A stretch of DNA of 64,000 nucleotides from Chitinophagales bacterium (GCA_046329575.1 JAXLUJ010000013.1:4338-68337), one strand, 5' to 3'. Shown: positions 8,322 to 58,872, numbered from the stretch's first letter. The notes: generated by a model not told the origin, from the letters alone. Numbers and translations: made by a program.

Positions 8322-8350
8322 TTAAGAGCGGTTTCTGATTTCTTTTCTAT

Positions 8351-8375: not shown

Positions 8376-8425
8376 TTCCGGTTATTCAAACTGTTATTCG
8401 CAGCCAAAATGATCCCGGTTGGGAT

Positions 8426-31853: not shown

Positions 31854-31905
31854 TGCGGTGAATGTTCCCCACCCAAAGGCTGGAACACCTTATGCGGCAA
31901 CGGTT

Positions 31906-32607
31906 ATGGGCATTTCATTGTACAATAAGAAACGCAACTTTAAATCAACAAAAGAACCAGAAGGCAAGGTAAAATCAGGTTCGGGAAAGTTGAAATTTGT
32001 GGTGCAAAAACACCATGCGTCGCATTTACATTACGATTTCCGTTTAGAAATGGAAGGCGTATTAAAAAGCTGGGCAGTTCCTAAAGGACCTTCGATGAAC
32101 CCCGATGATAAACGATTGGCAATGATGGTGGAAGATCATCCGTATGATTACAAAGATTTTGAAGGAAACATTCCTGAAGGAAGTTATGGTGGCGGCAATG
32201 TGATTGTTTGGGATGCGGGCAGTTATCATTTGCCGGAAGCAATGACGCGTAAAAAACAGGAAGCCCAATTACTGGCCGATCTTCATAATGGTCATCTGCA
32301 TTTTGTTTTGGAAGGCAAGAAATTAAAAGGCGCATTTTCTTTAGTCAAAATCAAAAATGGCAAACAGGAAAATGCGTGGTTGCTGGTAAAGAAAGATGAT
32401 GAATTTGCCAGTAAAGAAGATATAACGTTGAAGGAAAATTCGGTGCTCAGCAAACTCACCTTACCGAAACTTGCGGAAAAGTTTGGCAATGACAAGAATG
32501 GCATTTCCGGTTCAGAAAAAAAGCGGACTGTAAAAAGCACTTCAGTTATACCCGCTGCGAAAAAACAGGCGGTAAAAAAAAAGTCCGCGCCCGGCCTGAA
32601 AAAATAA
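31906..32607 (+). CDS. LigD 3'-phosphoesterase (PE) domain protein with lysine-rich tail
   Basis: YNKKRNFKSTKEPEG…KFVVQKHHASHLHYDFRLE…LKSWAVPKGPS is the LigD-PE signature. Start moved to ATG 31906. Confidence 0.85.
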   Translation: MGISLYNKKRNFKSTKEPEGKVKSGSGKLKFVVQKHHASHLHYDFRLEMEGVLKSWAVPKGPSMNPDDKRLAMMVEDHPYDYKDFEGNIPEGSYGGGNVIVWDAGSYHLPEAMTRKKQEAQLLADLHNGHLHFVLEGKKLKGAFSLVKIKNGKQENAWLLVKKDDEFASKEDITLKENSVLSKLTLPKLAEKFGNDKNGISGSEKKRTVKSTSVIPAAKKQAVKKKSAPGLKK

Positions 32608-32612
32608 AGCCG

Positions 32613-34493: not shown

Positions 34494-34551
34494 CTCCATA
34501 ATTCCACTAAATAACATTTATTATATTGCAAGGAGTTTAATAACAACCACT

Positions 34552-39863: not shown

Positions 39864-39896
39864 GGTCGAAGCGCTAATTTTCATCGCGCTTCGACC
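39864..39896. terminator. Perfect 11-bp inverted repeat hairpin at convergent gene junction (possible bidirectional terminator/RNA-stability element)
   Basis: GGTCGAAGCGC-(11 nt)-GCGCTTCGACC. The left arm ends in the dinB stop codon and the right arm encodes the last dinB residues. There is no clear U-run. Confidence 0.45.
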
Positions 39897-41100
39897 GCTG
39901 GCGGTTTACTTCTTCCTTCATTTCGGCCTGCACGTCGCGGTTGCGCTTCACATTGCCCATGTCCATACCGCGCGCTAAAACAATTTTTCCGGTGCCATAC
40001 TTTTGTTTCACAGCATCAATAGCGCTGTACATCTTCGTTTCACCTTCCTGATCTTCAAAAATACGAAGTTGGGACCCGGTATGAACCAGCCGGCTGAAAC
40101 GCACGCCGATTAAACGCACCGGCCTGCCGTTTTCATAAAGTTCATGAAACAAACGCGTAGCCTCATTGATGAGAATTGTGGTAGAAAAGGTATCGCTGAT
40201 CGTGCACTGCCGCGAAGTAGTTGTAAAATCATTGTAACGAATTTTCACTGTAACGCAGGCCGTAAGGCGTTTCAGTTTCCGCAAATCGAACGACAATTTT
40301 TCAGTGAGCACAAAAAGTGCCGAGAGCAGAAATTTTTCATCTGTTGCATCTTCATCGAAAGTGCGTTCAACAGAAACCGATTTTTCTTCGTGATAATTTT
40401 CCACTTCGCCATGATGTTCGCCGCGCGCGCGCTGGTACAACATCAACCCCGTTTTTCCAAAAACATTCATCAGACTTTGCAACGGAATTTCACGAAGCTG
40501 GCGAACCGTACGCACATTCATCTGAATCAATTTTTCTTCCAGTTTTTCACCAACAAACGGAATTTTACCTACCGGTAGCGGATCCAGAAAATCTTGTTCA
40601 CTTCCCGGTTGAATTTGAAATTGTCCGTTAGGCTTTCCAGCATTGGTAGCCATCTTCGCCAGCATCTTATTGATGGAAAGCCCGAAGGAGATCGGCAACC
40701 CGGTGGCATTAATAATCTTTTGCCGCAGTTGCACGCTGAAGTTCCAGGCGCCGAAATACTTTTCCATTCCGGAAAGATCGATGTAAAATTCATCGATAGA
40801 CGCCTTTTCGAAGGTGGGCGCTTCGTTCTCAATTACCTGCGTAACCATCCTGCTATACCGCGAATATTCGGCCGAATCGCCACGAAGGTAGATGCCATTG
40901 GGGCAAAGGCGGTGAGCCTGTGCTGAAGGCATGGCGGAATGAACGCCCATTTGACGAGCCTCGTAGCTGCAGGAACTCACCACGCCGCGATGGCCTACCG
41001 CCCCAACAATTACCGGTTTGCCAATTAATGAAGGGTCTTTTATTCGTTCTACCGAAACAAAAAAAGAGTCCAGATCGAGATGCAGAATGGCGCGGTCCAT
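39874..41100 (-). CDS. dinB: DNA polymerase IV (Y-family)
   Basis: 408 aa. ILHLDLDSFFVSVE active-site motif. Little-finger domain. Basic C-terminal extension. Confidence 0.9.
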   Translation of the reverse strand: MDRAILHLDLDSFFVSVERIKDPSLIGKPVIVGAVGHRGVVSSCSYEARQMGVHSAMPSAQAHRLCPNGIYLRGDSAEYSRYSRMVTQVIENEAPTFEKASIDEFYIDLSGMEKYFGAWNFSVQLRQKIINATGLPISFGLSINKMLAKMATNAGKPNGQFQIQPGSEQDFLDPLPVGKIPFVGEKLEEKLIQMNVRTVRQLREIPLQSLMNVFGKTGLMLYQRARGEHHGEVENYHEEKSVSVERTFDEDATDEKFLLSALFVLTEKLSFDLRKLKRLTACVTVKIRYNDFTTTSRQCTISDTFSTTILINEATRLFHELYENGRPVRLIGVRFSRLVHTGSQLRIFEDQEGETKMYSAIDAVKQKYGTGKIVLARGMDMGNVKRNRDVQAEMKEEVNRQRSKRDEN

Positions 41101-41170
41101 AACTACCTGTAAAAGAAACTATATTTTTTGGTATTTTTGCGCTAATAATTTTAGTTTTCAACTTTTGAGT

Positions 41171-41953
41171 ATGGATTTTATTCAGCATAACATCAAATTT
41201 TTGAGAAAACAAAAAGGCTGGACGCAGGAACAACTAGGTTTGGAACTGGAAATCAAAAGAAGCCTGATTGGCAGTTATGAAGAAGGCCGCGCCAAACCCA
41301 ACTATGAAGTGTTGGCGGCGCTTTCAAAAGTTTTTAAATGCAGCATTGATAACCTGATCACGCGCGATTTGCGATTAACAGAAAAAGTGCCCTTGTTCTC
41401 GCCCGAACAACTGGATATTACGGGTGAATCGATGCGGGTGTTGGCCATTACGGTTGACGAAAAGCAGAATGAAAATATCGAAATCGTTCCGGCAAAAGCT
41501 GCTGCCGGTTATTTGAATGGTTATGCCGATCCTACTTTTATTGAAGAACTGAATCGCTTCCGGTTGCCATTTCTACCGGCAGGAACTTACCGCGCTTTTG
41601 AGATCAAGGGCGATAGTATGTTGCCGCTGCAACCGGGAAGTGTTGTAGTAGGCGAATATTTGAGCAATTGGAAAGAAATGAAAGATGGACATACGTATGT
41701 GATCATTTCGAAACACGATGGTATCGTTTACAAACGCGCATTTAGCAAGATCGAGGAAGATGGTACTCTAATTCTTCGTAGCGATAACACCTCCTATCCG
41801 GCTTATTCTATCCATATCAATGAAGTGCTGGAAGTGTGGAAGGCTGTGCTTCACATGAGTTATGTAAATAAAGGCAGCGATATTTCTTTTCAAAATATTT
41901 TGCATTTGATGCAGGAATTGAAGCAGGATGTAGAAACGCTGAAGGGCAATTAA
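41171..41953 (+). CDS. LexA-like self-cleaving repressor (XRE-type HTH + S24 peptidase)
   Basis: HTH region IKFLRKQKGWTQEQLG. Ala-Gly cleavage-type motif PAKAAAGY. Ser (KGDSMLP) and Lys (VYKRAF) dyad. Start set to ATG 41171, not 41018 which overlaps dinB. Confidence 0.8.
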   Translation: MDFIQHNIKFLRKQKGWTQEQLGLELEIKRSLIGSYEEGRAKPNYEVLAALSKVFKCSIDNLITRDLRLTEKVPLFSPEQLDITGESMRVLAITVDEKQNENIEIVPAKAAAGYLNGYADPTFIEELNRFRLPFLPAGTYRAFEIKGDSMLPLQPGSVVVGEYLSNWKEMKDGHTYVIISKHDGIVYKRAFSKIEEDGTLILRSDNTSYPAYSIHINEVLEVWKAVLHMSYVNKGSDISFQNILHLMQELKQDVETLKGN

Positions 41954-41957
41954 AGAA

Positions 41958-42512
41958 TTACCTTATGGTAAGATGAGGAATGTGAAACACTTTTTCATCA
42001 CGAAAAATGGTGAGGTCATAAGTTCCTTCAGGAATATTTTTGACAGCCGAAAAATTTCCGCCTTTTTCAATATAGGACCATTGAACAATTTGCTTTCCGG
42101 ATAAGAATTCTACACACTCATTTTTAAATACACCACCAATAGCCGTGATGGTAACACATGCACTTTCGGGATTATACGCTGCTACATAACCTTGAAATCG
42201 GGAATCAGGCCGAGCTAGTATCTGACTGGAATCTCTAGCCGTCATAGAAGTGTTTAATGGCCATTCAGGATGGATTTGCCAGTTTTCCGGAATTCGAAGT
42301 TCGGTTTGAAAGTGGAGCGCTGCCTGCAAAGGAACATGGAAAACCGGAAGCAGGGCTCGAAAGAAATTGTTGCTGTAAATTGCTGTAGCCGGATCGCCGG
42401 ATTCAATAGTCCATACGAATGCTTTTCCCAATTTGCTGGATACCGTATCCTGACAAAAGACTTGCGTTGATTGAAAAAAAATCAGCAATCCCAAACACTT
42501 TTTTAGTGGCAT
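41958..42512 (-). CDS. Small secreted hypothetical protein, last gene of the five-ORF cluster
   Basis: 184 aa. Signal peptide MPLKKCLGLLIFFQSTQVFCQ. The first five codons are identical in nucleotides to those of the upstream paralog. 2-nt gap to the upstream stop. Confidence 0.6.
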   Translation of the reverse strand: MPLKKCLGLLIFFQSTQVFCQDTVSSKLGKAFVWTIESGDPATAIYSNNFFRALLPVFHVPLQAALHFQTELRIPENWQIHPEWPLNTSMTARDSSQILARPDSRFQGYVAAYNPESACVTITAIGGVFKNECVEFLSGKQIVQWSYIEKGGNFSAVKNIPEGTYDLTIFRDEKVFHIPHLTIR

Positions 42513-42514
42513 AT

Positions 42515-44140
42515 CTATTCCATCATTAACCGCGAGGTAGCCATACGCTTGCCATCGCCTTCCAAAGCTACAGAATAAACACCGCTCTGTAAATTAGGCA
42601 GCGTGATTTGCTGAAAGCCACTGTAGGCGGGCACTTCCAGTTGCAGCACTACTGCCCCCAGACTGTTATAGCACACCAATTGAACCTGGCGGTAACGCTC
42701 CCATTCAATCCAGTTGTAGCTAATCAGCAGTTCGCTGCCACCACTGTTGGGATTAGGCTGCAATTGCAGTGCCGGTGCCCGTCCGTACAGCGGGTACAGC
42801 GAGTTGATGCCGCTGTAGATCGTATCGCAGCCCGATCCGATTTTGCGACCCGTGCGGTAATGAGGGAAATGGGGCGGGGCGTACAATACCATTTTACTGG
42901 TGCGGTACCGCTTGGGGGTGCCCATAGCCGCCGCCCCCTTTTCATTCGGCCGTTCGATGGTCGTAAAACTATGGCCCAGACCATTCATGGCCGTGGCAAA
43001 AAAGATCCGGCCGTCCGGGGCCATCTGAGAGCATTTAAAATTATAGGAGGGAAAGAGATAGTGCAAGGTGTCGAAATTGGGCGGTTGCGGGAACGAAAAG
43101 GTATCTTTCAGCTTGGTCGTATTCAGTACCGTATCGCGGCTGGCCATCACATCGGCCGCCTCCAGATCGTACTGATATACCAATGCCCTTAGATTCAGAT
43201 ATACAAAACGGTTGTTGGAAGAGATTTCCGCACTCTGGCAAAAGGCTTTAAAAGGCAGGTTCAGCGTATCGTATTCCGGAAAGGTGTCGATCACCAGAGG
43301 GTGCGACAACAATCCGCTGCAGCGGTCAAAATCGAACAGCTGCGGATGGTACGTCACAGAGCCCCGCACCGCCTTGGTGCCATCGGCCGAAAAGACCAAT
43401 TTACCATAATCCGCTTCCGTTTCCACTTCGCCTATGCACTGACTGCCCGAAAACGCCAGCGTATCCGGCTTCAGCAGGTAGCGCAGGTAGCAGTTGGTCT
43501 TCCACTCCTTAAAAAATACCCACCAGTCCCGGCCATTGCCATGGCGGCAGGCCGATACAAAACCGATCTCGCATTGGTGCATCGATAGCCGTATATCTTT
43601 CTTTTCGATCTTCAAATGACCGGTGCTGCGGTGGCGCGTGATATACGAATACACCGGATGGAAATCGGGCGTGGTCACATCGCCATACAACTGCGGATAG
43701 AACAGATAATAGCCCGTATCCGTTCCCGGCTGCGGTAACGCCATAAAGCTGTACACCAAGGCCATCCCACCCACGCCATCGTGCGCGATTTCTTTATAGT
43801 CTTCCCAATAATAATCGGTATATCCCAGTGAATCCCCATTCTCAATAATATGGCCCGAACTGTCCATCACCCACATCCCATTGGTTTGAAACAGCAAACG
43901 GCCCGAACTGTCGGAAAAATTGCAATTGCTTTCCCAGTAAGCCATACCCCGGTACTGGGGGCGATACCGGAAACTGTCGGTAAACAACCCTTCTTCATTG
44001 CCGGCACTGGGATGATGCAGCACCGAGTCCTGTAAGGCGGGATCCGCCCCCCAAATCCACGTCCGGTCGTACTGCTGGGCGTAGCTACCGGCTGCAAAAA
44101 AGGAGATTGCAAATAAGGAGAGGAACTTTTTTAGTGGCAT
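42515..44140 (-). CDS. Uncharacterised secreted protein (beta-propeller-like by eye) with T9SS type-A CTD; paralog 2
   Basis: 541 aa with a signal peptide. CTD is LQLQPNPNSGGSELL…YNSLGAVVLQLEV…SGVYSVALEGDGK. Near-identical to 44143..45771. Confidence 0.75.
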   Translation of the reverse strand: MPLKKFLSLFAISFFAAGSYAQQYDRTWIWGADPALQDSVLHHPSAGNEEGLFTDSFRYRPQYRGMAYWESNCNFSDSSGRLLFQTNGMWVMDSSGHIIENGDSLGYTDYYWEDYKEIAHDGVGGMALVYSFMALPQPGTDTGYYLFYPQLYGDVTTPDFHPVYSYITRHRSTGHLKIEKKDIRLSMHQCEIGFVSACRHGNGRDWWVFFKEWKTNCYLRYLLKPDTLAFSGSQCIGEVETEADYGKLVFSADGTKAVRGSVTYHPQLFDFDRCSGLLSHPLVIDTFPEYDTLNLPFKAFCQSAEISSNNRFVYLNLRALVYQYDLEAADVMASRDTVLNTTKLKDTFSFPQPPNFDTLHYLFPSYNFKCSQMAPDGRIFFATAMNGLGHSFTTIERPNEKGAAAMGTPKRYRTSKMVLYAPPHFPHYRTGRKIGSGCDTIYSGINSLYPLYGRAPALQLQPNPNSGGSELLISYNWIEWERYRQVQLVCYNSLGAVVLQLEVPAYSGFQQITLPNLQSGVYSVALEGDGKRMATSRLMME

Positions 44141-44142
44141 AT

Positions 44143-45771
44143 CTATTCCATCATTAACCGCGAGGTAGCAATTCGTTTGCCATCGCCTTCCAAAGCTAAA
44201 GAATAAACACCGCTCTGTAAATTAGGCAGCGTGATTTGCTGAAAGCCACTGTAGGCGGGCACTTCCAGTTGAAGCACTACTGCACCCAGACTGTTATAGC
44301 ACACCAATTGAACCTGGCGGTAACGCTCCCATTCGATCCAGTTGTAGCTAATCAGCAGTTCGCTGCCACCACTGTTGGGATTGGGCTGCAATTGCAGTGC
44401 CGGTGCCCGTCCGTACAGCGGATACAGCGAGTTGATGCCGCTGTAGATCGTATCGCAGCCCGATCCGATCTTGCGACCCGTGCGGTAATGAGGGAAATGG
44501 GGCGGGGCGTACAATACCAGTTTACTGGTGCGGTACCGCTTGGGGGTGCCCATAGCCGCCGTACCCTTTTCATTCGGCCGTTCGATGGTCGTAAAACTAT
44601 GGCCCAGACCATTCATGGCCGTGGCAAAAAAGATCCGGCCATCTGGGGCCATCTGAGAACATTTGAAATTATAAGACGGTAGATAGATATAATGCAAGGT
44701 GTCGAAATTAGGCGGTTGCGGGAACGAAAGGGTATCTTTCAGTTTAGTCGTATTCAGTACCGTATCGCGGCTGGCCATCACATCGGCCGCCTCCAGATCG
44801 TACTGATACACCAAACCCATTAGATTCAGATATACAAAACGGTTGTTGGAAGAAATCTCTGCACTCTGGCAAAAGGCTTTAAAAGGCAGGTTCAGCGTAT
44901 CGTATTCCGGAAAGGTGTCAATCACCATCGGGTGCGACAACAATCCGCTGCAGCGGTCAAAATCGAATAGCTGTGGGTGGTACGTCTCAGAGCCCCGCAC
45001 CGCCTTGGTGCCATCAGCCGAAAAAACCAATTTGCCATAATCCGCTTCCGTTTCCACTTCGCCTATGCACTGGCTGCCCGAAAACTGAAGTGTATCGGTT
45101 GTGAGAAGATACCGCAAATAGCAGTTGGTTTTCCACTCCTTAAAAAATACCCACCAGTCCCGCCCATTGCCATGGCGGCAGGCCGTTAGAAAACCGATCT
45201 CGCATTGGTGTATCGAAAGCCGTATATCTTTCTTTTCGATCTTCAAATGACCGGTGCTGCGGTGGCGCGTGATATACGAATACACCGGATGGAAATCGGG
45301 CGTGGTCACATCACCATACAACTGCGGATAGAACAGATAATAGCCCGTATCCGTTCCCGGCTGCGGTAACGCCATAAAGCTGTACACTAACTCCATTCCT
45401 ATTATGCCGGCACGTGCCCCCTCCTCAAGATCTTCCCAATAATAATCGGTATAGCCTAGCGAATCCCCATTCTCGATAATATGACCCGAACTGTCCATCA
45501 CCCACATCCCATTGGTCTGAAACAGTAAATGGCCGGAACTGTCGGAAAAACTGCAATTGCTTTCCTCAAAAGCCATACCCCGGTGCTTCGGACCATACCG
45601 GAAGCTGTCCGTAAACAACCCTTCTTCATTGCCGGCGCCGGGATAATGCAATACCGAGTCCTGCAACTCCGGATGTGCGCCCCAGATCCACGTCCGGTCG
45701 TACTGCTGAGACTGACCAGCTCTGGCAAAAAACAAAAAGGCGAAAATTGGAAGGAGCTTCTTTAATGGCAT
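44143..45771 (-). CDS. Uncharacterised secreted protein with T9SS type-A CTD; paralog 1
   Basis: 542 aa. Same architecture as paralog 2. Its start overlaps the stop of the 2246-aa ORF by 10 nt (ATATGCCATTAAAG). Confidence 0.75.
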   Translation of the reverse strand: MPLKKLLPIFAFLFFARAGQSQQYDRTWIWGAHPELQDSVLHYPGAGNEEGLFTDSFRYGPKHRGMAFEESNCSFSDSSGHLLFQTNGMWVMDSSGHIIENGDSLGYTDYYWEDLEEGARAGIIGMELVYSFMALPQPGTDTGYYLFYPQLYGDVTTPDFHPVYSYITRHRSTGHLKIEKKDIRLSIHQCEIGFLTACRHGNGRDWWVFFKEWKTNCYLRYLLTTDTLQFSGSQCIGEVETEADYGKLVFSADGTKAVRGSETYHPQLFDFDRCSGLLSHPMVIDTFPEYDTLNLPFKAFCQSAEISSNNRFVYLNLMGLVYQYDLEAADVMASRDTVLNTTKLKDTLSFPQPPNFDTLHYIYLPSYNFKCSQMAPDGRIFFATAMNGLGHSFTTIERPNEKGTAAMGTPKRYRTSKLVLYAPPHFPHYRTGRKIGSGCDTIYSGINSLYPLYGRAPALQLQPNPNSGGSELLISYNWIEWERYRQVQLVCYNSLGAVVLQLEVPAYSGFQQITLPNLQSGVYSLALEGDGKRIATSRLMME

Positions 45772-48700
45772 ATACTGATTTTTTGGGAAAAGAGATGTTT
45801 ACCTTGCTGCAGCACCCGGATCTGATACGCTCCCGAAGCTATATTTTTTGTGTCAATAACCACTCTGTTGCCCGAAAATTCCCATTGATCCAAAACCACT
45901 TCACCTAAATAATTGAGCATCTGTATATGCTTACCGTTAAAAAAATCGTTTTTAACGGTAACAAAAACCGAATTGCCGGCAGGAATGGGATACACATGGT
46001 ATTCCGGAGTAGTGCAGATGGAAATGGAGGTATCCGGTTCCTTTTTCAGGGCGATGCCTACCTGATCGCAAATATCGTAATCATCATACGCTTCGGGCGA
46101 AGACCAATTCAGCAGTGCCCGAGCCTCAAAAACTGCCATACCTCCTTCAATATAGCAGGAATGCGCTATATCGTACAATTGCTGATACCCCTCTTCATCT
46201 AAATAGGAAGAATCAGTAACTACTGAATGCAGATAGGCATCCGTTACCTGTTTTTTATTGCGTTCATAATATTCCAAATCAGAAAGATTCCAGTTGCTAT
46301 CGATTAACTGCAGTCTTCTGTCCTCAAAAATAGCTTGTTCAGCCGAATGTATAGCTTCTTGCAATACCCTTTCACTATCAATGAGGGCATACAGCAGTTC
46401 TCGCTGTACGATATAGGCCGAATCTGGAAGTGCAATAAAAGACGACTGTGTATCGCTTGATGTCCATAGCTGCTCCAGACTGTCCGATACATTTAAAATG
46501 GCGGTATCATCCGGTTCGGCAGTAACAGTTAATATGCGTGCGGCAGCATCCAGGGTATCTAACTGCCGTTCATACTGGCTTTGGCGCAGATAGCTGGTCT
46601 GCAACTGATCGCTATGTACCGAAGTATAATCGCGCAGATGTTTTTTTGCATCAGCCACCTGTACGAACCGCTCTATTTCGGTACCGTGGTTTTGTTGGTA
46701 AAAATCGTATTCGGGGCTGCCGAAAATAAGGCTGTCGCGGGCATCGCCCAGGGCGCCCAGCACCTGTTCTTTGGCATCCCATTTGTTAACCTCCGTAAAA
46801 TAATCGGGATTGTATTTCCCTTCCATCACCTGCCTTTCGAATTCCGACAGTATCGGATTCGTACCGGCCGTCAAAGCCGGTAGCGCACTGCCACCGGAAC
46901 ATTTTGGCAAATCGGAATAGAACGGATCTCCACGAAACCAGCCATTTAATTTGATATCGACATTGAGATTCCCGGTATTAATCGGATTAATGAAGGAAGG
47001 CGTTACCTTATCTAAGGTCGGGCTCTGATCGGAACTGCCAGAGGCAGGAGTTACAAAACGGCTTGCCGCACCATTTCCCGTTTGGTCCAATAGTTGGCTT
47101 TGGTTCCAGGCAGCGGCGCCGCTGGTCATCGGATTGGTGCCATAACTACCCATCCAGCGGTTACCCTTTTGGGATTGATCGCCAATTAAACCCGATGCCG
47201 TAATCTGCACTCCCAAATAATTGCCTATGTTACCTCTTCCAATTTCATTGGTTTTGAAATCGGTATTCTGGTTTCGTCCTTCGAATCGAAAGCCGGTCCG
47301 CAAATTGTAGGCAGAATTGCACTCTAAACGTAACCCGCCTAAGGTATTTGCGGCTATGCAAAAACCACGCGGGTATTGTTGATTAGAGGCCATAATCGGC
47401 CCAATATTCTGGGCCGTATTGGAAAGTATCTGAATATTGGTGCTGTTGTGAACATTAAAGCAGTTGTTCGGCCGGATCTGATTAGAAATTGCCGTTACCG
47501 TATTTTCCTGTACCGAAACATTTTTATCGGTACCGCCATTTACGCCGTTAAATGTTACGCCCTCTACACCCCGCTTAATAGTTACAATATTATGTAGAAT
47601 ACTCAATGTGGGATAGCTGTTCGCCACATCATCGGTCACAACGATTCCAAACCCATAATTTGATGAAGACGGCCCGTGAAAAACGCCCCACTCCCAACGC
47701 TCCACATCCACTGTATTGTTACTTATAGAGTGCTTGAGGGGGCTCCAGCCTGCCTGCCTGCAATAATTCATAGCAATGCCAATTGATTGCGGCTCCAGTT
47801 TAAAAAACGGTTGCGCCTGAAACGGAGACGGCGTAAATCCAAGCATACGAATATAATTGTTCTCAATAGTGATTGTTGAATTCACACATCTGTTGATCAA
47901 TATGCCGGTTTGGCAGTAATTTAAATGATTACCGGAAACATTTATAGTATAAGCATCTTCTACTTTCACAGCCTTCCGGCACAATTTAAACAATGAATTC
48001 GTGACCTGAAGGTTATTACTAATTGCAGGGAATTTGCCTTTCGCATAAATTCCATTACCACATCGCATTCCGGTTCCTCCCGCGCCGGCAGGCTCTTCAA
48101 ACGCTAAATACGTTGCCGGGTGTGCCGGGTCGGGCAACTCGTAAAATTTAGCGTTGTCGATAGTAAGGGTGGAATTTCTGAGTACGATGCCATTCGCGAT
48201 ATGTTTAAAGTTGCCGGTAACAATATCGGGTACTACCGTTTGGTTCAAAACCATTCCGGCAAAAGCCCAGTTGTTATTTGGTAGTGTCATATCTAAAACG
48301 GTAGGCTCACCTACTGCATTCCACATACCCGGAAAAGGTTTTTTTAAATTTTGGTTTCCTTCAAACAAGGTGAGATTCCCCAGTTGAATGCTGCACTTTC
48401 TTACTGCGCCTAAAACCGTTGGCGGAAAAGGAGCGGTATAGATCCCTATAAAATTGTTTCGGAATGCCGCATAATCGCAATAGAGCTGGCTCTTTTGGTT
48501 AAGTTGAATGGCATATTGAGCATCCTGAATTTCTTTAAATCGAACCAGAGAGAGTTTAGCATCAGCCGACACTTTAAAGCCCTGCCACAGGCAATCGCCC
48601 AGGGAAGCTATCGAGCAGGTTGCCAAAATCAAATTTTGCGATGGCAACACCGTGATTGACCCGCCCGGAACTACAAGAAATTTCACGAAACTAAAAACAT

Positions 48701-51700
48701 ACTGATTGCTGGTAACATTACCCGCAATTACAACTACCGGCGGGTTGGCCGAGCTGCCCAGATACATATTCGGATATCCTTTCCCGGCCATATACGAAGC
48801 AATTTCTGCACCATCGGGAATTACCATAGCTATCGGAAACGGCGATGTATAATTATAACTGATCGCCGCAGTCGACTGATTGAATTGCGTAACCGTAACC
48901 GTATAGGTTCCGCTCATGATGGGCGTAATAGTTGAAGTAGCGGCACCCGTATTCCACTCATAACTTTGTGCAGCCGGGGCTTCCAGCATCGGCAGGCCGC
49001 AATCATCAAAACATCTGGTCACAACAACTTGTTTTGAAGCCACAGCCTGGCAGCCATTTGCTTTAGTTACTGTAACAGAATAGTTATATGACCCGGAAAC
49101 GATCGGGGCTGAAAAAGTAATAGCCGGCGAAGAGGCGGGAGAATTACTCCATTGATAGGTTACGCCATTATTAGCAGTTAAAGTAATGTCATTACCGGTA
49201 CACACGGTGTTAGCTGATGCAGTGATTACCGGGTTACATTGCGGAATAACTATTTCATCAAAATGCGATTGAATAACTTCCGTTTGTTGTTTACAGTAGA
49301 GGTTGTATTGCCACTCCAAATCCAAACGCGGGATGTCGAAAAGGCAATTTTGGGGAGTAAACTCAAGCTGTAATTGAAGTTGGTCTTCTGAACCTGGATT
49401 ACCATCAGTAACGCCGTCGGCACCAAAAGCTGAATTGACTGCAAAGTTGGTCAGGTTCAACGAATTTAACGTTCCAAGATCAAGATTATTAATGGTATTG
49501 GGAAGCGTTAGGGTTGCATTTGCAACCACCACACCTCTTCGTAAAAGACTCCATCGGTGAAGTGTTAAACCCGGTTGAGGCGTCCAGAAAACTTTCATAT
49601 TTCCGGCACCTCCTTTACCGGGATTATGAAATGCGATAATATATTTTAAATCAGCATTGCCGTTGCAAATTGGGTTTACCGGAGGGGTCAGTTCCAAACT
49701 GGCGGTAGCCACTTGTGGTGGGGTAATGGACAGCGTGTAAGGCAAAGACGCCGAGTTCATGCAACTATTTCCAAAGGGAGAGAAATTTGTAGCAACTTCA
49801 TTTGGATAATTTCCATCACAACTCCATCCATATTGTAATGGAATTTGAAAAAGATGCTCCGGCAAGCAATCAGCAAATCGGAATTTTAACTGACAATTAA
49901 CTGAATTCTGGTTTAAAGGACCAAAGGTATATACGACATAACAATTACCATTTACGTCGGTTCTGTAAACCGGTTGTATTGGAACTGAGTTTAACATTAC
50001 GCCATCCAGATCGATTTGACCTGCCAATCCTGAAATAGGGAATGGCCCTAAAGGGGTTCCCGTGCATGCGGCTGCTGTGGGCACGGCGATATGAATAAAA
50101 AAAGAAGTGTTATCAGTAGCCCCGCCTCCAATCGGCTGGGTCACATCCATATTTAGATTATATGAAAATGTATTTCCTACAATAAAGTTAGGTTGTGTTT
50201 GAATAGCTTGCGGTGTAATAGTTAGCGTAGGGGGCGAAAGTATTGGATTGTTACTGATTCCAGCGCCGCCAATATCCGTGACTACTGCTACATTGTTACA
50301 GTAATTGTCGAAATCGGCAAGACTCATCGAAAAATCAGTTTGCTGAATAACTCCATTGGAAGGCGTTGGTCCCGTACATTCAGGAATAATCTCTGTAATT
50401 AGACCTTGCTCAAAGTATTCATCGCCCAATACTAAAGCTGGCAAATTATTTAATGGGGTTGGACTGCCGATTGTTCTAAATTCATTTTCATTAAATATAC
50501 TCGGCAAAGATGTCCAATATGCAGCAACAAAGGGGTTCAATGGAACTGTGTTTCCTGTAATAGTTGCAGGCATACTTTCGCGCATCAATTGATATCCTGC
50601 AGCATTGTTAGTGTTCAAATAAACGGAACCCGAGCCACTGCCATATCCATATCCCGAATAAGGTTGAACAGGAATAGGAAGACTACTCCAAATCGGACTA
50701 ATGGCGGGTTGATTTGCAAAATTATCTGTTACTGATGTTATATACTGTTGATCTACCTGAAAATTATTAAATGTTTGCGCAACAGTATAAAGCCATTTTA
50801 ATTTTGCCCGGAACCCGTTGGGAATATTTAGGTTAAATTTATAGGGAGTTGTTAAATTATTTGCACCTTGTATTCGGGGGCCATTAAATAAATTAAGCGC
50901 TACGTCTCCCGGAATCGGACGAATTTCATACGGAAATACGTTAACCAGTCCATTGAAGCCATCAACATAAAATTTGTGCCTCATTTTATTGTACTTATGA
51001 CAAGAATTCGGATTGTCCCACGTTTCTTCTGTTTCCTTCCTAATCGGAAAAAAGGTAACACCATCTACGCGCGGTTCGCACATAAAGTATCTGGCATCGG
51101 CTGTAGAATTTGCTATTGGTGAACTAACGCAAGGTTGACCAGGGTGAAGCTCATTCGTTTCACCGGCATCTTTCATTTTACTGTGAGGATCCCCCTCAAA
51201 TACCCCGTTTAATTTAACATCACTTTCAGTGGCGCCGTAAACACCAAAAAGGTAACTGATCGCAAGAATCGTCTTAGGTTGACTAACATTTTTACATACG
51301 GTATAGTGCGATTCAATTTTAAAGACTTGACCCGGATGAAACTCAGTTAAATTAAGATCGCTATTAGTAAAATGATAAAGAAATATTGATTTATCACCAA
51401 TAACGTTGCCGTTTTGAATAGCCGATTTATATACACTACCAGCGGGAATGTTATTTGCAAAATCACTTTGACTATTAAAAACGGTAAGTTGAATACTACC
51501 ATTCGATGGCAAGTCTTTCGATTCGCGCAATAATCCTTGATCGTCTAACCAGGATAACTGTAAATAAATATCTTCAATCTTACGCCCCCCACAAGCGGCC
51601 CATTCCGAATAAGAATAACCAACTGTTGAAGTGCCATCAAAAAAGTTTGCGTAAGAAACAACCTTGAGTTGATCGCCTAGCATAACGCTATGCGTTTGAA

Positions 51701-52502
51701 TATTCGGAGTATTCGCATTTACCATAGTAAAAGGATTTGTAGGCGTTCCGTCATCAACTCTTCCGTCATTGTCTTCATCCTTAAATCCGAAAGTGGTTCG
51801 ATTAGCTTGAAGCGAGGATGTTATGATTCCAGGGGTTACACAACCAGGACAAAAGACAACGAAACGAAAGGCTTGTTCGTTCAATGGTATAAAACACTCT
51901 GTAACGCAAGTATTCGGCGAATGGAGTGGGTTTGGTGAAAAATATGTATGCATGTAGGCATAAGGATTAGACTTGGTTGGGTCAGAAAGAGGACAACATC
52001 CGCGAATCCAAAACTTAATTTTTGAACCGAGAAAAAAGTTAACAAAGTCGCTCATACCCGGTGCTGTAATCCCTGATTGTATTAACTCATTTTTCAAGTC
52101 GTCTAAGTCAAAAATGGCATAGGCATCGGCATTTGGATCAAATGTCGGCGCCATTGCATCTTGAAAGTTACTTGGATTCCAAACCGTATTACCTTTTTCT
52201 ATCCTAGGCGATTGTCCGCAAATTAAGTTTGCTTCTAAATTATATACTATTGCAAATTTTCCCCGAGGGAAAGCGGTCTCAGTCTCGCAGAATAATTGCC
52301 CGTCGCCATTCAAGTTCTGAATTTGTGTAGCCGGAAAAGAAGCATTAATAATTTCGTTATCATATTCGTCGTTACTACATGATCCAACATTGCGATCTAC
52401 GATTCCAAAGTTATATTGGTGCGGATACTGTTTTAATTCAAGATCAGGGGCGGTTATCCCATCTGCCATTTGAGTTGAGATTCCTTTTGATGGCAAATTC
52501 AC
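45762..52502 (-). CDS. Giant T9SS-CTD protein lacking its own signal peptide (beta-sandwich/Ig-like repeats, DxDxDG motif, right-handed beta-helix region, helical region, type-A CTD); in frame with the upstream 500-aa ORF across one TAG
   Basis: 2246 aa. The N-terminus MNLPSKGISTQMADGITAPD is not a leader. Contains DEDNDGRVDDG. Ig-like segment VCTGNDITLTANNGVTYQWS. PbH1-like repeats (…NSTLTIDNAKF…VSGNHLNYCQTGILINRCVNSTITIENNYI…). CTD is YHVYPIPAGNSVFV…GAYQIRVLQQGKHL. Confidence 0.8.
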   Translation of the reverse strand: MNLPSKGISTQMADGITAPDLELKQYPHQYNFGIVDRNVGSCSNDEYDNEIINASFPATQIQNLNGDGQLFCETETAFPRGKFAIVYNLEANLICGQSPRIEKGNTVWNPSNFQDAMAPTFDPNADAYAIFDLDDLKNELIQSGITAPGMSDFVNFFLGSKIKFWIRGCCPLSDPTKSNPYAYMHTYFSPNPLHSPNTCVTECFIPLNEQAFRFVVFCPGCVTPGIITSSLQANRTTFGFKDEDNDGRVDDGTPTNPFTMVNANTPNIQTHSVMLGDQLKVVSYANFFDGTSTVGYSYSEWAACGGRKIEDIYLQLSWLDDQGLLRESKDLPSNGSIQLTVFNSQSDFANNIPAGSVYKSAIQNGNVIGDKSIFLYHFTNSDLNLTEFHPGQVFKIESHYTVCKNVSQPKTILAISYLFGVYGATESDVKLNGVFEGDPHSKMKDAGETNELHPGQPCVSSPIANSTADARYFMCEPRVDGVTFFPIRKETEETWDNPNSCHKYNKMRHKFYVDGFNGLVNVFPYEIRPIPGDVALNLFNGPRIQGANNLTTPYKFNLNIPNGFRAKLKWLYTVAQTFNNFQVDQQYITSVTDNFANQPAISPIWSSLPIPVQPYSGYGYGSGSGSVYLNTNNAAGYQLMRESMPATITGNTVPLNPFVAAYWTSLPSIFNENEFRTIGSPTPLNNLPALVLGDEYFEQGLITEIIPECTGPTPSNGVIQQTDFSMSLADFDNYCNNVAVVTDIGGAGISNNPILSPPTLTITPQAIQTQPNFIVGNTFSYNLNMDVTQPIGGGATDNTSFFIHIAVPTAAACTGTPLGPFPISGLAGQIDLDGVMLNSVPIQPVYRTDVNGNCYVVYTFGPLNQNSVNCQLKFRFADCLPEHLFQIPLQYGWSCDGNYPNEVATNFSPFGNSCMNSASLPYTLSITPPQVATASLELTPPVNPICNGNADLKYIIAFHNPGKGGAGNMKVFWTPQPGLTLHRWSLLRRGVVVANATLTLPNTINNLDLGTLNSLNLTNFAVNSAFGADGVTDGNPGSEDQLQLQLEFTPQNCLFDIPRLDLEWQYNLYCKQQTEVIQSHFDEIVIPQCNPVITASANTVCTGNDITLTANNGVTYQWSNSPASSPAITFSAPIVSGSYNYSVTVTKANGCQAVASKQVVVTRCFDDCGLPMLEAPAAQSYEWNTGAATSTITPIMSGTYTVTVTQFNQSTAAISYNYTSPFPIAMVIPDGAEIASYMAGKGYPNMYLGSSANPPVVVIAGNVTSNQYVFSFVKFLVVPGGSITVLPSQNLILATCSIASLGDCLWQGFKVSADAKLSLVRFKEIQDAQYAIQLNQKSQLYCDYAAFRNNFIGIYTAPFPPTVLGAVRKCSIQLGNLTLFEGNQNLKKPFPGMWNAVGEPTVLDMTLPNNNWAFAGMVLNQTVVPDIVTGNFKHIANGIVLRNSTLTIDNAKFYELPDPAHPATYLAFEEPAGAGGTGMRCGNGIYAKGKFPAISNNLQVTNSLFKLCRKAVKVEDAYTINVSGNHLNYCQTGILINRCVNSTITIENNYIRMLGFTPSPFQAQPFFKLEPQSIGIAMNYCRQAGWSPLKHSISNNTVDVERWEWGVFHGPSSSNYGFGIVVTDDVANSYPTLSILHNIVTIKRGVEGVTFNGVNGGTDKNVSVQENTVTAISNQIRPNNCFNVHNSTNIQILSNTAQNIGPIMASNQQYPRGFCIAANTLGGLRLECNSAYNLRTGFRFEGRNQNTDFKTNEIGRGNIGNYLGVQITASGLIGDQSQKGNRWMGSYGTNPMTSGAAAWNQSQLLDQTGNGAASRFVTPASGSSDQSPTLDKVTPSFINPINTGNLNVDIKLNGWFRGDPFYSDLPKCSGGSALPALTAGTNPILSEFERQVMEGKYNPDYFTEVNKWDAKEQVLGALGDARDSLIFGSPEYDFYQQNHGTEIERFVQVADAKKHLRDYTSVHSDQLQTSYLRQSQYERQLDTLDAAARILTVTAEPDDTAILNVSDSLEQLWTSSDTQSSFIALPDSAYIVQRELLYALIDSERVLQEAIHSAEQAIFEDRRLQLIDSNWNLSDLEYYERNKKQVTDAYLHSVVTDSSYLDEEGYQQLYDIAHSCYIEGGMAVFEARALLNWSSPEAYDDYDICDQVGIALKKEPDTSISICTTPEYHVYPIPAGNSVFVTVKNDFFNGKHIQMLNYLGEVVLDQWEFSGNRVVIDTKNIASGAYQIRVLQQGKHLFSQKISICH

Positions 52503-52514
52503 ATTTGCCGGAAA

Positions 52515-54017
52515 CTACGGAAGCGATGTTCCTGAAGTTTCCGTAAAACTAGTTTTACTGGAACTAAACTCTTGAAAAGTGTAACAAGCCAAATCGTACC
52601 TTCCCTTTACTTCAAAATGATTAAAAACATAATTGTAAAGTGATTGCGGCCATTTATTGTTAGTGGTAACAAGATTTGCTGGACATACTCTGGTTGTTTT
52701 AAACTGCAAAATGAAAAGATCATCTGCTGCTAAATCCCCTAAGCCTTTATAGTAGGCCTTTAATCGTCCATTAGCATCATTCACTGAATACGGACTATTT
52801 TTATGTCCAATAGATTGGATATCGAAGGCAGCCGGAAACAAATATGAACTTATTGGATTTAAATCGCCATCTACTTTTTGCACTTCAATATCAGTCACAT
52901 CTAAATAATCTAATTGGGGAAACAGATCATAAATTTGGATATATGCATTCTTGACTGCACATGTATTTTGAATAAGAAATTTCCAGTTTTGTGAGGCACC
53001 GATACAAGAATTATCCCATGCCTCATTGTCCGCAGGTAGTATCCTGCTTACTGTCATTGCTTTAGGATCAACAGGATTTGTGAAGGTAAAAGAACAATTT
53101 GGTTCAAAAATACATGATGAATTCGACTCACATGTCCATGCCGCTGTAACACTTACCTGACATGGTGCATTTAAGCACGTGGGCGTGATTGAGGTTAAAC
53201 CCTGGTGTTTTAAAGAAAATACAAAATTAATTTCTTCGTGAGGCGGAATTGGAGTATTAGCAAACGACCTGGAAAAAGTGTAACGGCCTGTGATAACTGG
53301 ATCCGGAACCAAAGTGACATTAATAGGTTGATTGCTAATTGATGAAGGCAAAATAATTTTTGCAGAGGACATTACCTGAAAATTATCCGGACAGTGTATA
53401 TCCAGCGTAACTGTAACATTGCCCTTGAACTCGCTATCTCCTGTATTCTGGAATATGGATTTAAGATCACTTAGTTGTCCCGGTACATAGTTCTGATTTG
53501 CAGTGGAGTTACAAGTAAGTATTGGATAATGCATAGCAGAATTTATCGTCAATCCACTTGATAATACAGTAATGTTTTGTTGAAAAGCCGGCGCAGTAAC
53601 CGAATTGTTAGGAATCAATCCACATTTTGGATGTACCTTAAAAGGTAAAATTAATACTTCTCCTGCTGCAAATGACTGGCTCGAAGTGTATGTGATTTCA
53701 TAACCAGTTCCGGAACTATTTGGTGCTAAGCTGAAATCAGGCGGCATCACTGTCAGAGTATAAAGTCCGGTAGAAATGCTCGAATTATTTTTCTTTAAAG
53801 AATAACCAATTACCAAGTTTGTATTAGCACTAAAGGCGGAATTGAACTTAATTTCAATGGAAACATCATTATCTGTACATGCTTTTAAGTCAATAGTTTG
53901 GGTAAGATTTGTTAGTGTTACCGATTGTGAAAACATTATCGCCGGAATACCAACGAAAAAAATGATCCATAATAACTTTCTGATTCCTACGAGAGGACAC
54001 ACGGATTTGCTGTTCAT
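52515..54017 (-). CDS. Signal-peptide-bearing beta-sandwich-repeat protein without CTD; probable N-terminal part of the giant ORF downstream
   Basis: 500 aa. Leader LLWIIFFVGIPAIMFSQS. CARDB/DUF11-like segment (NTGDSEFKGNVTVTLDI). Ends …TSGTSLP-TAG, 12 nt before the GTG of the next ORF and in the same frame. Confidence 0.75.
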   Translation of the reverse strand: MNSKSVCPLVGIRKLLWIIFFVGIPAIMFSQSVTLTNLTQTIDLKACTDNDVSIEIKFNSAFSANTNLVIGYSLKKNNSSISTGLYTLTVMPPDFSLAPNSSGTGYEITYTSSQSFAAGEVLILPFKVHPKCGLIPNNSVTAPAFQQNITVLSSGLTINSAMHYPILTCNSTANQNYVPGQLSDLKSIFQNTGDSEFKGNVTVTLDIHCPDNFQVMSSAKIILPSSISNQPINVTLVPDPVITGRYTFSRSFANTPIPPHEEINFVFSLKHQGLTSITPTCLNAPCQVSVTAAWTCESNSSCIFEPNCSFTFTNPVDPKAMTVSRILPADNEAWDNSCIGASQNWKFLIQNTCAVKNAYIQIYDLFPQLDYLDVTDIEVQKVDGDLNPISSYLFPAAFDIQSIGHKNSPYSVNDANGRLKAYYKGLGDLAADDLFILQFKTTRVCPANLVTTNNKWPQSLYNYVFNHFEVKGRYDLACYTFQEFSSSKTSFTETSGTSLP

Positions 54018-54167: not shown

Positions 54168-54956
54168 TCACGGCAAATCATTCACATCAAATTTGAAATA
54201 CGGATTTTCAAAATGAAGATCTTTATAATGTATCAGTTTCCATTCGCCATTATGATATTCCAGCGCCGTCATATTTTCTACCCAATCCCCGGAATTCATA
54301 TAAGTAACCGTTCCCTTTTCGGTTTGAATTTCCTTTATGCAGGGTAAATGAATATGCCCGTTAATCACACAATCGTAACCATTGTCAATCGCTATCTCGG
54401 CCGCCGTCAATTCATAGTTACCAAACTTTTTCACCCCTCGCTTCGTAGCATCCTTAATGGCCTTGGTGAAGTTTACATGTTCTTTCCCCAACAAAACTCT
54501 GATGAAGTTCACCAACTTGTTGGCCAATATCAGCAGTTCGTAGCCGGTGTTACCCAATTTCGCCAGCCATCGGGAACCGCGCATGCTCACATCAAAAATA
54601 TCGCCGTGAAAAAACCAATGGCGCTTGCCGTCCAGTTCCAGAATCAGTTTATCTTCCAACTGCAAGTTCCCCAAATTCATGCCGCTGTATCGGCGCAACA
54701 ACTCATCGTGATTGCCGGTGAGATAATACACCTGAACGCCTTCGCTCAAAAATTTGAAAATGCGCTGTAATACCTTAGTGTGCGATTTTGGAAAATAGTA
54801 CGACCGGAATTGCCAAATGTCAATCAAATCGCCATTAATCACCAATATTTCAGGCTGTATCGACTTCAGGTACTTGTTTAACTCCTTCGCCCTGCAGCCT
54901 AAAAAGCCCAGATGCACATCTGAGATCACACAAACTTTAACTGCGCGCTTTGCCAT
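54168..54956 (-). CDS. UDP-2,3-diacylglucosamine diphosphatase-like metallophosphoesterase
   Basis: 262 aa. DVHLG, GDLIDIW, GNHDE and GHIH motifs of the calcineurin-like/LpxH-type fold. Confidence 0.75.
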   Translation of the reverse strand: MAKRAVKVCVISDVHLGFLGCRAKELNKYLKSIQPEILVINGDLIDIWQFRSYYFPKSHTKVLQRIFKFLSEGVQVYYLTGNHDELLRRYSGMNLGNLQLEDKLILELDGKRHWFFHGDIFDVSMRGSRWLAKLGNTGYELLILANKLVNFIRVLLGKEHVNFTKAIKDATKRGVKKFGNYELTAAEIAIDNGYDCVINGHIHLPCIKEIQTEKGTVTYMNSGDWVENMTALEYHNGEWKLIHYKDLHFENPYFKFDVNDLP

Positions 54957-55093
54957 AGCTCGAAAATTAGAAATTATTCTGCGCTTGAAAACCTTGTTGT
55001 AAGGTTTAAACTAAAAATAACGTAGTGGTAATGCGGTGCCAATTTCGTTTTTAAAGAAGTCCGCCTTATATTCGCGGCGCTCTTTAATTACAG

Positions 55094-55190
55094 TTTATCA
55101 AGAAAGGCGGAGGGACAGGCCCTATGATGCCTTAGCAACCGGTGGAACTCCATGTGGTGCTAATTCCTGCCCCAAAGGGGAAAGATAAGG
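55094..55190 (+). promoter_or_regulatory. SAM-I (S-box) riboswitch aptamer upstream of metH
   Basis: TTATCAAGAAAGGCGGAGGGACAGGCCCTATGATGCCTTAGCAACC…GGTGCTAATTCCTGCCCCAAAGGGGAAAGATAAG matches the conserved AUCAAGAG-GGCGGAGGGAC-GGCCC-AUGA-GCC-GCAACC…GGUGCUAAUUCC…AGAUAAG core, with P1 TTATC/GATAA. Confidence 0.9.
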
Positions 55191-55248
55191 TGATCGTACA
55201 TTACTCTTATCGGATTTTTTTGTAAGCTGTAAAAAGGCACAAACTCTA

Positions 55249-58200: not shown

Positions 58201-58872
58201 AAGTGGTTAACTGCAAAAGCGGTGATTGGTATTCACGAAGCCAAAAAGAAAAATGAAACCGTTACGCTGAAGGGCGTCGATTTCCATTTTCTGCGGCAGC
58301 AGGCTGAGAAACCTAAAGGCCAGGCTAACTACTCACTTGCCGATTTTATTGCGGAAGAAAACGATCATTTAGGAACGTTTGCGGTTACAGCAGGAATTGG
58401 CATTGAAAAGAAATTGGAAGAATTTGAAAAACAGCACGACGATTATTCTTCCATCATGCTGAAAGCACTTGCCGACCGGCTGGCAGAAGCGTTCGCCGAA
58501 CTAATGCACAAACGTATTCGTACCGAAATATGGGGATATGCCAAAGAAGAAAATCTCGACAATGAATCACTGATTCGTGAGGCCTATCAGGGCATTCGTC
58601 CCGCACCCGGTTATGCCGCCTGTCCTGACCATACTGAAAAACCATCTATCTGGAAATTGCTGGACGTGGAGAAAAACACAGGAATTAAACTTACGGATAG
58701 TTATGCCATGTATCCAACAGCTTCCGTTTGCGGTTGGTATTTTGCGAATGCAGAAGCTCGTTATTTTGGTGTGGGAAAAATCGAAAAGGATCAGGTTGCG
58801 GAATTAGCCAAAGCGAAAAAACTTCCGGTGGAAGTAATGGAGCGCTGGCTGGGCCCTAACCTTGGCTACTGA
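55249..58872 (+). CDS. metH: Cobalamin-dependent methionine synthase
   Basis: 1207 aa. Hcy- and pterin-binding barrels, B12-binding DxHxxG (GDVHDIGKN) and a C-terminal AdoMet activation domain. Confidence 0.93.

Follow-up and report, generated by a model that had tools for sequence, protein, structure and literature searches.

Proteins of the Bacteroidota that carry a signal peptide together with a type-A C-terminal domain (CTD) use Sec to pass the inner membrane and the translocon of their type IX secretion system (T9SS) to pass the outer one, and are then released or attached to the surface. Such cargo, which requires both the signal peptide and the CTD, supplies a large part of the surface proteome of Bacteroidota and is mostly unannotated. 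The stretch analyzed here is 64,000 nucleotides (nt) of DNA from a Chitinophagales bacterium (GCA_046329575.1 JAXLUJ010000013.1:4338-68337), called the window below. It holds a compact cluster of minus-strand open reading frames (ORFs) that an earlier reading of the sequence without database searches (the sequence-only reading) had proposed as a novel, five-component cell-surface module of secreted T9SS proteins. The cluster is four genes, not five: a broken giant gene, which we call B, two copies of a beta-propeller gene, which we call P, and an orphan of 184 amino acids (aa). The reading that we favor, and judge to be probable, is that these are four co-oriented T9SS cargo genes whose core is a conserved two-gene module of B followed by P.

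Among described systems, the nearest functional analogy is offered by cargo that has a type-B CTD and is encoded beside its own dedicated partner, examples being SprB-SprF, GhpA-GhpB/GhpC and the type-B CTD/PorP-like pairs (PMC9143113; bioRxiv 10.1101/2024.01.29.577165). As in those pairs, a giant modular surface protein lies beside a small partner gene; here, however, the CTDs are type A, and the partner is a secreted propeller with its own CTD rather than a PorP/SprF barrel or a PorE-like protein. Pfam and NCBIfam searches found no type-B CTD (CHU_C, TIGR04131) in B, the genes adjacent to it encode propellers, and the PorP/SprF gene of the window is 33 kb away. A relation to GhpA, the Aureispira grappling hook protein, was rejected because its architecture differs and its partners are PorP/PorE. 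PorZ of P. gingivalis (PDB 5M11) is a T9SS-dependent surface propeller with a CTD and serves as an accessory for other cargo (PMC5121618, PMC8545088). PorZ has two propellers in about 770 aa, whereas P has a single propeller, is multi-copy and is often tandemly duplicated. P was rejected as a PorZ homologue, since its profile touches 5m11 only in the CTD (E value 0.42) and 5m11 falls outside the top 50 fold matches.

Like other T9SS type-A cargo (PF18962 / TIGR04183; gingipains, mirolase, NucA), both B and P end in a CTD beta-sandwich that matches solved CTDs. This terminal beta-sandwich is present in the models of both proteins, with template modelling (TM) scores of 0.76-0.83 for the B CTD against those of NucA and mirolase, and the P-family profile matches the solved NucA CTD 8glk_D at 1.6e-9. 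Judged by eye, the P copies would have their own signal peptides, and B would have one at its N-terminus only as a fused gene, a link that is broken by a TAG codon. What differs from known type-A cargo is the passenger domains, the helix and helical core of B and the HGNGRDWW-containing propeller of P, which match no curated family. The secreted or surface T9SS-type nature of the cluster proteins, as first proposed, is supported. Within the window, evidence that the host has a T9SS consists of the PorP/SprF gene (PF11751, 133 bits) and the OmpA/PD40 PorE-like gene next to it; the core genes sprA and gldKLMN lie outside it. Limited searches of the literature found no description of an ordered pair of type-A cargo genes like B and P.

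Conserved order of B and P

The ORFs in 80 species-level loci from species-representative genomes were classed with hidden Markov models (HMMs) of P and of the B core, the conserved section of B described below. In 34 of the 80, B was the immediate upstream neighbor of P, or of a P array, with both on one strand and a spacing of -46 to +89 nt; the reverse order, P before B, was never seen among the 80. In loci seeded from B proteins, P followed B directly in all eight; these include the long-form homologues in L083, L084 and L087, an M43-peptidase-headed member (L090) and the truncated tail of a minimal member (L085). In the sample, B is always accompanied by P, and P does not need B. Conservation of the gene neighborhood had been left as a check on the original proposal; the B-then-P order recurs in many Bacteroidota genomes, and the objection that no order is conserved fails. 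With at least 249 B-core clusters and at least 594 P loci, the pair represents a sizeable, uncharted part of Bacteroidota surface biology.

Several loci contain further small genes beside the module. Small ORFs of 130-240 aa, labeled S in Table 1, match the end of B, from the final portion of its helical domain through the CTD; they lie directly before extra copies of P and lack signal peptides. They look like 3' ends of B that were co-duplicated with P, though several stay intact. In three Chitinophagales-type loci, a protein of 311-318 aa with a C-terminal CarboxypepD_reg-like domain and no signal peptide is encoded a short way upstream of B or P genes; in L084 its gene is in two pieces, and the window has none. 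Transposase genes (rve, Transposase_mut and IS1595 types) adjoin B-P modules in L084 and L088, a hint that the module or its parts can move.

Gene B is one reading frame interrupted by a TAG codon

Re-computation of the five minus-strand ORFs reproduced exactly the coordinates and spacings of the sequence-only reading, the latter being 12, -10, 2 and 2 nt between successive ORFs from the 500-aa to the 184-aa one. The first two, ORF1 (500 aa) and ORF2 (2246 aa), are nevertheless one interrupted gene and not two coupled genes, as follows from their common frame with a lone TAG, a homologue that runs across the break, the division of signal peptide and CTD between the pieces and their common base composition. 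The TAG that ends ORF1 and the first possible start of ORF2 (GTG, 52502) are in the same frame, the translation reading TSGTSLP, stop, FPANVNLPSKGISTQMADG, and this TAG, after codon 500, is the sole internal stop in the 8256-nt frame of B. An exhaustive HMMER search yielded P0124, an uninterrupted B homologue of 2714 aa named 'hypothetical protein [Chitinophagales bacterium]' at NCBI. Residues 294-496 of ORF1 match P0124 269-487 (E value 1e-7), and ORF2 from residue 19 to its end is 31% identical to P0124 from 516 on. Long B homologues (2,700 aa) were aligned with MAFFT, and in this multiple alignment the similarity continues unbroken through the stop and the 12-nt 'gap' (KGISTQ against AGISTN, APDLELKQ against DPDLELIQ). 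The mature N-terminus of ORF1, QSVTLT..C, matches that of homologues P0125 and P0127 (2835 aa and 2868 aa). ORF1 and the first 600 codons of ORF2 also have in common a low GC content at third codon positions (GC3), 0.297 and 0.318 respectively.

Only the fused gene of 2751 codons brings a signal peptide and a type-A CTD together, signal peptides being judged by eye: ORF2 has no hydrophobic N-terminus or signal peptide, also judged by eye, and ORF1 has no CTD. The earlier statement that each product of the cluster has a signal peptide or a CTD is misleading for B, neither piece of which has both. TAG ends 10 of the window's 37 ORFs, and its reassignment or recoding was rejected on this ground. 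Three origins are conceivable for the TAG in B: a fixed mutation, a variant of the strain, or an error. As written, the genome would make two fragments of B, one of 500 aa that would be periplasmic (signal peptide, no CTD) and one of 2235-2246 aa that would be cytoplasmic (CTD, no signal peptide). B is therefore probably inactive in this genome, and would be displayed on the surface only by readthrough of the TAG or if the TAG is a variant of the strain or the assembly. In the database, ORF2 is called as P0273, of 2235 aa, and grouped in a cluster whose representative is a fragment of 854 aa. For this genome, the annotation can be corrected: the gene calls of 500 aa and 2235/2246 aa are two pieces of a single interrupted gene.

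In 4 of the 34 B-P loci (L026, L036, L039 and L050), the B-family gene is likewise divided between two ORFs. The pieces in L026, L036 and L050 occupy different or overlapping frames; this suggests frameshifts and tells nothing about the TAG of the window. L039 looks degraded. At least one of these assemblies, that of L036, uses contig names of the tig style, which points to long reads. It seems that long B genes are easily disrupted or misassembled.

Architecture of B and the B-core family

From its N-terminus, B consists of a signal peptide, a head of ~1750 residues, a beta-helix of ~550 residues, a helical domain of ~260 residues and the CTD (Table 1). Only the last ~990 residues of the giant protein are conserved, while the N-terminal ~1750 form a variable, lineage-specific head. 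An AlphaFold model of the core with 48 family members (predicted local distance difference test, pLDDT, 78.5; predicted TM score, pTM, 0.78) has a beta-helix of ~540 residues in stacked short strands, then the helical domain, then the CTD. The beta-helix and the helical region before the CTD, which had been read from the sequence of the giant, are borne out by this model. Other features claimed for the giant belong to the variable head. The beta-sandwich/Ig-like repeats are there as an Ig_7 match, although below threshold (23.3 bits), and the putative Ca-binding motif DEDNDGRVDDG is present, with the acidic stretch DDDDDGLADVNG kept in P0124, but lies outside the conserved core.

The helical domain is marked by the motif ..NEKxVNxIYLxT....QCPxxGGxAVxxAR...DD..C, whose columns are conserved in alignments A3, A4 and A5, and fold and profile searches with this domain gave no match. 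For the beta-helix, the B sequence of the window has no Pfam match itself; homologous core members exceed the thresholds of Pfam Beta_helix and NosD, for example P0158 (Beta_helix 51.5 bits, NosD 36.9), and NosD was matched in 13 of 33 core members. Judged by this homology and by the model, the B core belongs to the generic right-handed beta-helix class. Fold searches with the helix gave weak, generic matches, NosD among them. It resembles beta-helix/CASH-type proteins (PF13229, PF05048; tailspikes, AlgG, pectate lyases) in its long PbH1-type helix, and differs from them in having no conserved catalytic signature and in carrying a family-specific helical domain and a T9SS CTD.

A word-indexed search had suggested that the giant was an orphan, with one match at 5% coverage and no match to itself. 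That view was rejected when tblastn against the P-family loci and an exhaustive HMMER search revealed a large B family, with members roughly 20-30% identical. The HMMER search gave 1134 matches to the B core at E<=1e-3 and 249 representative clusters, at 50% identity, at E<=1e-10; the core was complete in 117 of the 150 best matches. The shortest members, of ~890-960 aa, consist only of signal peptide, core and CTD, and in others the head is made of PKD, DUF11, SprB or MAM repeats or domains, or of S8, M43, M12 or C1 peptidase domains. The head in the window has few relatives: a search for homologues of ORF1 found none among 5.8 billion proteins, nor in JGI metagenomes, and relatives of the head could be detected only in P0124 and, as fragments, in L038 and L042. 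A protein family could be defined for the B core and another for the P propeller, and 'hypothetical' entries with a type-A CTD could then be split by head type, including several peptidases.

The propeller genes

The two P copies are 91% identical in amino acids and 90.8% in nucleotides, with 73 synonymous and 45 non-synonymous codon differences, which indicates a recent tandem duplication with both copies apparently under purifying selection. Each P gene starts 2 nt after the preceding gene or overlaps it. The AlphaFold model (pLDDT 88) shows a single 7-bladed beta-propeller followed by the CTD, in agreement with the propeller-like fold suspected from the sequence. The best compact fold matches are lactonase-type/YVTN/WD40-like propellers (3fgb, 4qrj and 3scy), with TM scores of 0.54-0.58 normalized to the target and an overall range of 0.38-0.58 at 10-12% identity; the profile matches are weak (E value 0.004-0.01), and Pfam Lactonase (PF10282) is not matched. 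P differs from these propellers by its CTD and its own invariant motifs, ACKHGNGRDWW, DFDRCSG, QLAPDGKIY and GSxCDTL.

The protein search gave at least 539 relatives of P, and at least 594 loci of the family were confirmed in species-representative genomes, mostly labeled Chitinophagales, Saprospiraceae, Flavobacteriales and other Bacteroidia. At source, the relatives are annotated solely as 'T9SS type A sorting domain-containing protein', and PF18962 is found in nearly all of them.

The last three genes of the cluster all start with MPLKK, as had been noted. This sequence was rejected as a common functional motif, because the starts of the 541-aa and 184-aa genes are identical in DNA through ATGCCACTAAAAAAGT and upstream; the duplication junction lies there, and MPLKK is its footprint.

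The 184-aa gene and domain searches

The 184-aa gene is probably an unrelated, lineage-specific passenger. No homologue of its product was found in any related locus, the search being confined to those loci, and the protein is alone in its 90%-identity cluster. Its C-terminus gives a weak CTD-like match (7.7 bits). We rejected it as a counterpart of the S ORFs, since it matched neither the S profile nor any locus.

Pfam and NCBIfam searches of all five ORF products returned only the T9SS type-A CTD and the sub-threshold Ig_7 match in the giant. In sequence searches of the PDB, with single proteins and with the A1 and A3 profiles, the matches were limited to CTDs, the helix of an alpha-1,3-glucanase, weakly, and WD40/lactonase propellers of a generic kind. 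The claim that no product can be assigned to a characterized family is thus upheld by profile and fold searches, beyond the CTD and the generic beta-helix, and these searches placed the B-P pair in no family with a known joint function. A scan for promoters and terminators gave counts at or below shuffle expectation, and the sigma-70 consensus it used is not applicable to Bacteroidota.

How B and P might work together

In the favored reading, B and P would be co-transcribed and both would be exported, by Sec across the inner membrane and, through their CTDs, by the T9SS across the outer membrane. The beta-helix and helical stalk of B may then present an exchangeable head, which takes the form of adhesin-type repeats in this genome and of a peptidase in relatives. 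At the cell surface, B would have the P propeller as its partner, probably docked on the conserved core of B or on a ligand that B binds too. A tentative extension, possible but not one we would lean on, is that B core and P form a widespread and hitherto unrecognized 'carrier and partner' T9SS display system in which the core is a stalk with swapped heads and P is a co-secreted factor for assembly, anchoring or activation. If so, the system would be the type-A counterpart of the type-B CTD/PorP-like pairs, and the repeated co-duplication of S ORFs with P would be a sign that the helical tail is linked to P, physically or in its regulation. The B-P pair itself leads to the hypothesis that, like type-B cargo, some type-A cargo come with partners dedicated to them. 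In the genome at hand the module is probably inactive with respect to B, while the P copies stay constrained.

Several points weigh against the reading of B and P as a functional module. About half of the P genes in the sampled loci (~44) have no B and lie beside unrelated genes, and three of the eight B-seeded loci (L086, L088 and L089) are on contigs already in the P-seeded set, so that they are not independent of the 34. A distinct subfamily of B-adjacent P was considered and received marginal support: in a nearest-neighbor test of B-adjacent against stand-alone P, 48 of 78 was found against 39+-5.2 expected, a value reached by 46 of 1000 permutations. B-adjacent P thus form no clear subfamily, from which it follows that P does not depend on B. 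Co-transcription and contact between the two proteins are read from spacing and synteny, and the fold searches gave no functional clue beyond generic folds. The P copies of the window score 21.5 and 21.7 bits against the Pfam CTD, below the cut-off of 27, and the signal peptides of the P copies and ORF1, which have typical n-h-c regions ending in ..A/S-Q, were judged by eye. Finally, a strain variant or an error of assembly may lie behind the TAG; no second assembly spanning the site was found, including in JGI metagenomes.

The idea of a novel surface module is thus supported in part, as a conserved pair of cargo genes with a putative function. Our finding is narrower than the sequence-only reading, with four genes of which one is broken, one component is duplicated and one is an orphan, yet it is broader in that the B-P module, with its exchangeable heads, is widespread and uncurated.

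Alternative explanations

One alternative is that the cluster is a decaying island, acquired horizontally, turning into pseudogenes and without current function in this genome. Against a window background GC3 of 0.464+-0.045, both the lowest and the highest values of the window lie in the cluster: ORF1 (0.297) and the P copies (0.595 and 0.640) are the extremes, the B head has 0.32-0.35 and the 184-aa gene 0.346, while the B core, at 0.455, is at background. The unusual base composition reported by the sequence-only reading is therefore real as a deviation, but it is a mosaic and not that of one uniform island. It fits head exchange and separate histories of the parts, and head-swapping in a resident gene explains it better than a single import. 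The nonsense codon in B, the location next to SOS genes and the transposases beside B-P in L084 and L088 speak for an island; the native-like GC3 of the B core, the purifying selection on both P copies since their duplication and the lack of any integrase, transposase or tRNA at the cluster borders within the window speak against it. We consider this explanation unlikely, although it overlaps in part with the favored one, B being probably inactive here.

Another is that B and P are a polymer-degrading enzyme and its accessory, the helix acting as a glycan lyase, hydrolase or epimerase and P as a lectin- or lactonase-like helper; the pair would then serve polysaccharide use and not adhesion or display. 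The helix does have weak matches to alpha-1,3-glucanase 7c7d (E value 3e-5, 120 positions), the HK620 tailspike, AlgG and the viral pectate-lyase superfamily, and the solved folds nearest to P are 'putative 6-phosphogluconolactonase' propellers from Bacteroides, along with the PLL lectin. These matches are generic, however, with Foldseek E values of 2e-3 or worse and helix TM scores <0.35, and the columns that never vary in the helix are ladder positions of Asn, Gly and Cys, an acidic pair not being conserved. B showed neither a family-level match to the glycan-active helix enzymes (PL1/3/6/9, GH28/55/87, tailspike depolymerases, AlgG) nor their catalytic residues. There are no SusC/SusD or glycoside hydrolase domains in the five ORFs or their immediate flanks, as would mark a polysaccharide utilization locus, and many members of the family carry peptidase heads. 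The glycan binding or cleavage first suggested for the beta-helix is accordingly unsupported, and we regard the enzymatic explanation as doubtful.

It is also conceivable that unrelated, fast-evolving T9SS cargo genes have come to lie side by side by chance, with no functional link between B and P. CTD proteins are abundant, another one, of 1791 aa, is encoded nearby, and both the frequent occurrence of P beside unrelated genes and the lack of a distinct clade of B-adjacent P speak for such an explanation. It is hard to reconcile with the 34 loci, in species-representative genomes labeled Chitinophagales, Saprospiraceae, Flavobacteriales and others, where B directly precedes P in the same orientation at no more than 89 nt, with the consistent order and with the presence of P after B in every B-seeded locus; adjacency of this kind is far beyond expectation for two families with few copies per genome, and we hold chance to be highly improbable.

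That the cluster encodes five distinct, translationally coupled subunits of a novel surface machine, as its tight packing on one strand and the absence of characterized families might suggest, is scarcely credible, since ORF1 and ORF2 are one TAG-split gene, the 541/542-aa proteins are a recent duplicate, neither the 184-aa ORF nor ORF1 as a separate unit has a counterpart in related loci, and the sole conserved order is that of B core then P.

Features of the locus and neighboring genes

Table 1. Features of the B-P cluster, of its surroundings in the window and of related loci (window positions unless a locus is given)
Feature	Position	Strand	Remarks
Gene B, single 2751-codon T9SS cargo gene	45762-54017	minus	frame open save codon 501; P0124 colinear with both ORFs
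ORF1 (500 aa)	52515-54017	minus	upstream piece of gene B
ORF2 (2246 aa)	45762-52502	minus	downstream piece of gene B; GTG start
In-frame amber TAG	52515-52517	minus	reads TSGTSLP, stop, FPANVNLPSKGIS; neighbors Leu/Asn of P0124 in the alignment
Sec signal peptide of B	53925-54017	minus	MNSKSVCPLVGIRKLLWIIFFVGIPAIMFS then Q; read from the sequence by eye
Variable N-terminal head of B, beta-rich	48798-53924	minus	no Pfam family above threshold; GC3 0.30-0.35
DEDNDGRVDDG motif	51747-51779	minus	in B head, giant residues 242-252
Two Ig_7-like domains	48798-49232	minus	just before core; Ig_7 23.3 bits, below threshold
Right-handed parallel beta-helix of B core	47103-48737	minus	giant residues ~1256-1800; AlphaFold model, alignment A4
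All-helical domain of B core	46062-46844	minus	giant residues ~1887-2147; helices at model residues 648-908
Type-A T9SS CTD of B	45765-46004	minus	Por_Secre_tail 31.1 bits, cut-off 27
P copy 1 (542 aa)	44143-45771	minus	signal peptide, 7-bladed beta-propeller and type-A CTD; start overlaps B end by 10 nt
P copy 2 (541 aa)	42515-44140	minus	tandem duplicate of copy 1; model pLDDT 88
184-aa ORF	41958-42512	minus	signal-peptide-like N-terminus, weak CTD-like C-terminus; not a conserved module part
Metallophosphoesterase gene, calcineurin type	54168-54956		flank of cluster
SAM-I riboswitch	55092-55191	plus	83.6 bits; directly 5' of metH
metH	55249-58872	plus	B12-dependent methionine synthase
dinB and HTH-S24 LexA-like repressor gene	39874-41953	minus, plus	divergent; longest ORF calls overlap by 83 nt
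Giant T9SS cargo gene (1791 aa)	34477-39852	plus	PKD repeats, Ig_7-like domains, type-A CTD
LigD	31858-34493	plus	two adjacent ORFs
PorP/SprF gene	8426-9472	minus	first gene of the pair at 6009-9472
OmpA + PD40 PorE-like gene	6009-8321	minus	second gene of the pair
S ORF, L042	11498-12124
S ORF, L043	2472-3197
S ORFs, L045	6601-7005, 9042-9443
S ORFs, L048	11499-12077, 13631-14209
S ORF, L067	9422-9946
S ORFs, L071	3315-3860 (minus), 8570-9157
S ORF, L036	6110-6769
S ORF, L006	9495-9974
S ORF, L028	9344-9736
311-318-aa protein gene, L001	8289-9245
311-318-aa protein gene, L083	8355-9290	minus
311-318-aa protein gene, L084	8863-9834		split in two
Transposase genes, L084	882-2256, 7358-8575
Transposase genes, L088	5052-7436

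The flanks of the cluster are those of the sequence-only reading. On one side lies the metallophosphoesterase gene, followed by the riboswitch and metH, and on the other the HTH-S24 repressor gene, convergent with the 184-aa gene, and then dinB. The overlap of the repressor call with dinB suggests that the true start of the repressor is probably downstream of the TTG at 41018.

Elsewhere in the window, the PorP/SprF gene and the OmpA + PD40 PorE-like gene that follows it form a pair of the type proposed to anchor type-B CTD cargo. LigD, of non-homologous end joining, is encoded as two adjacent ORFs, with the 3'-phosphoesterase in a 249-aa product and the ligase and primase-polymerase in one of 626 aa. 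The ORF of the 1791-aa cargo overlaps the end of LigD; this second giant has in common with B only the Ig_7-like repeats (E value 1e-4).

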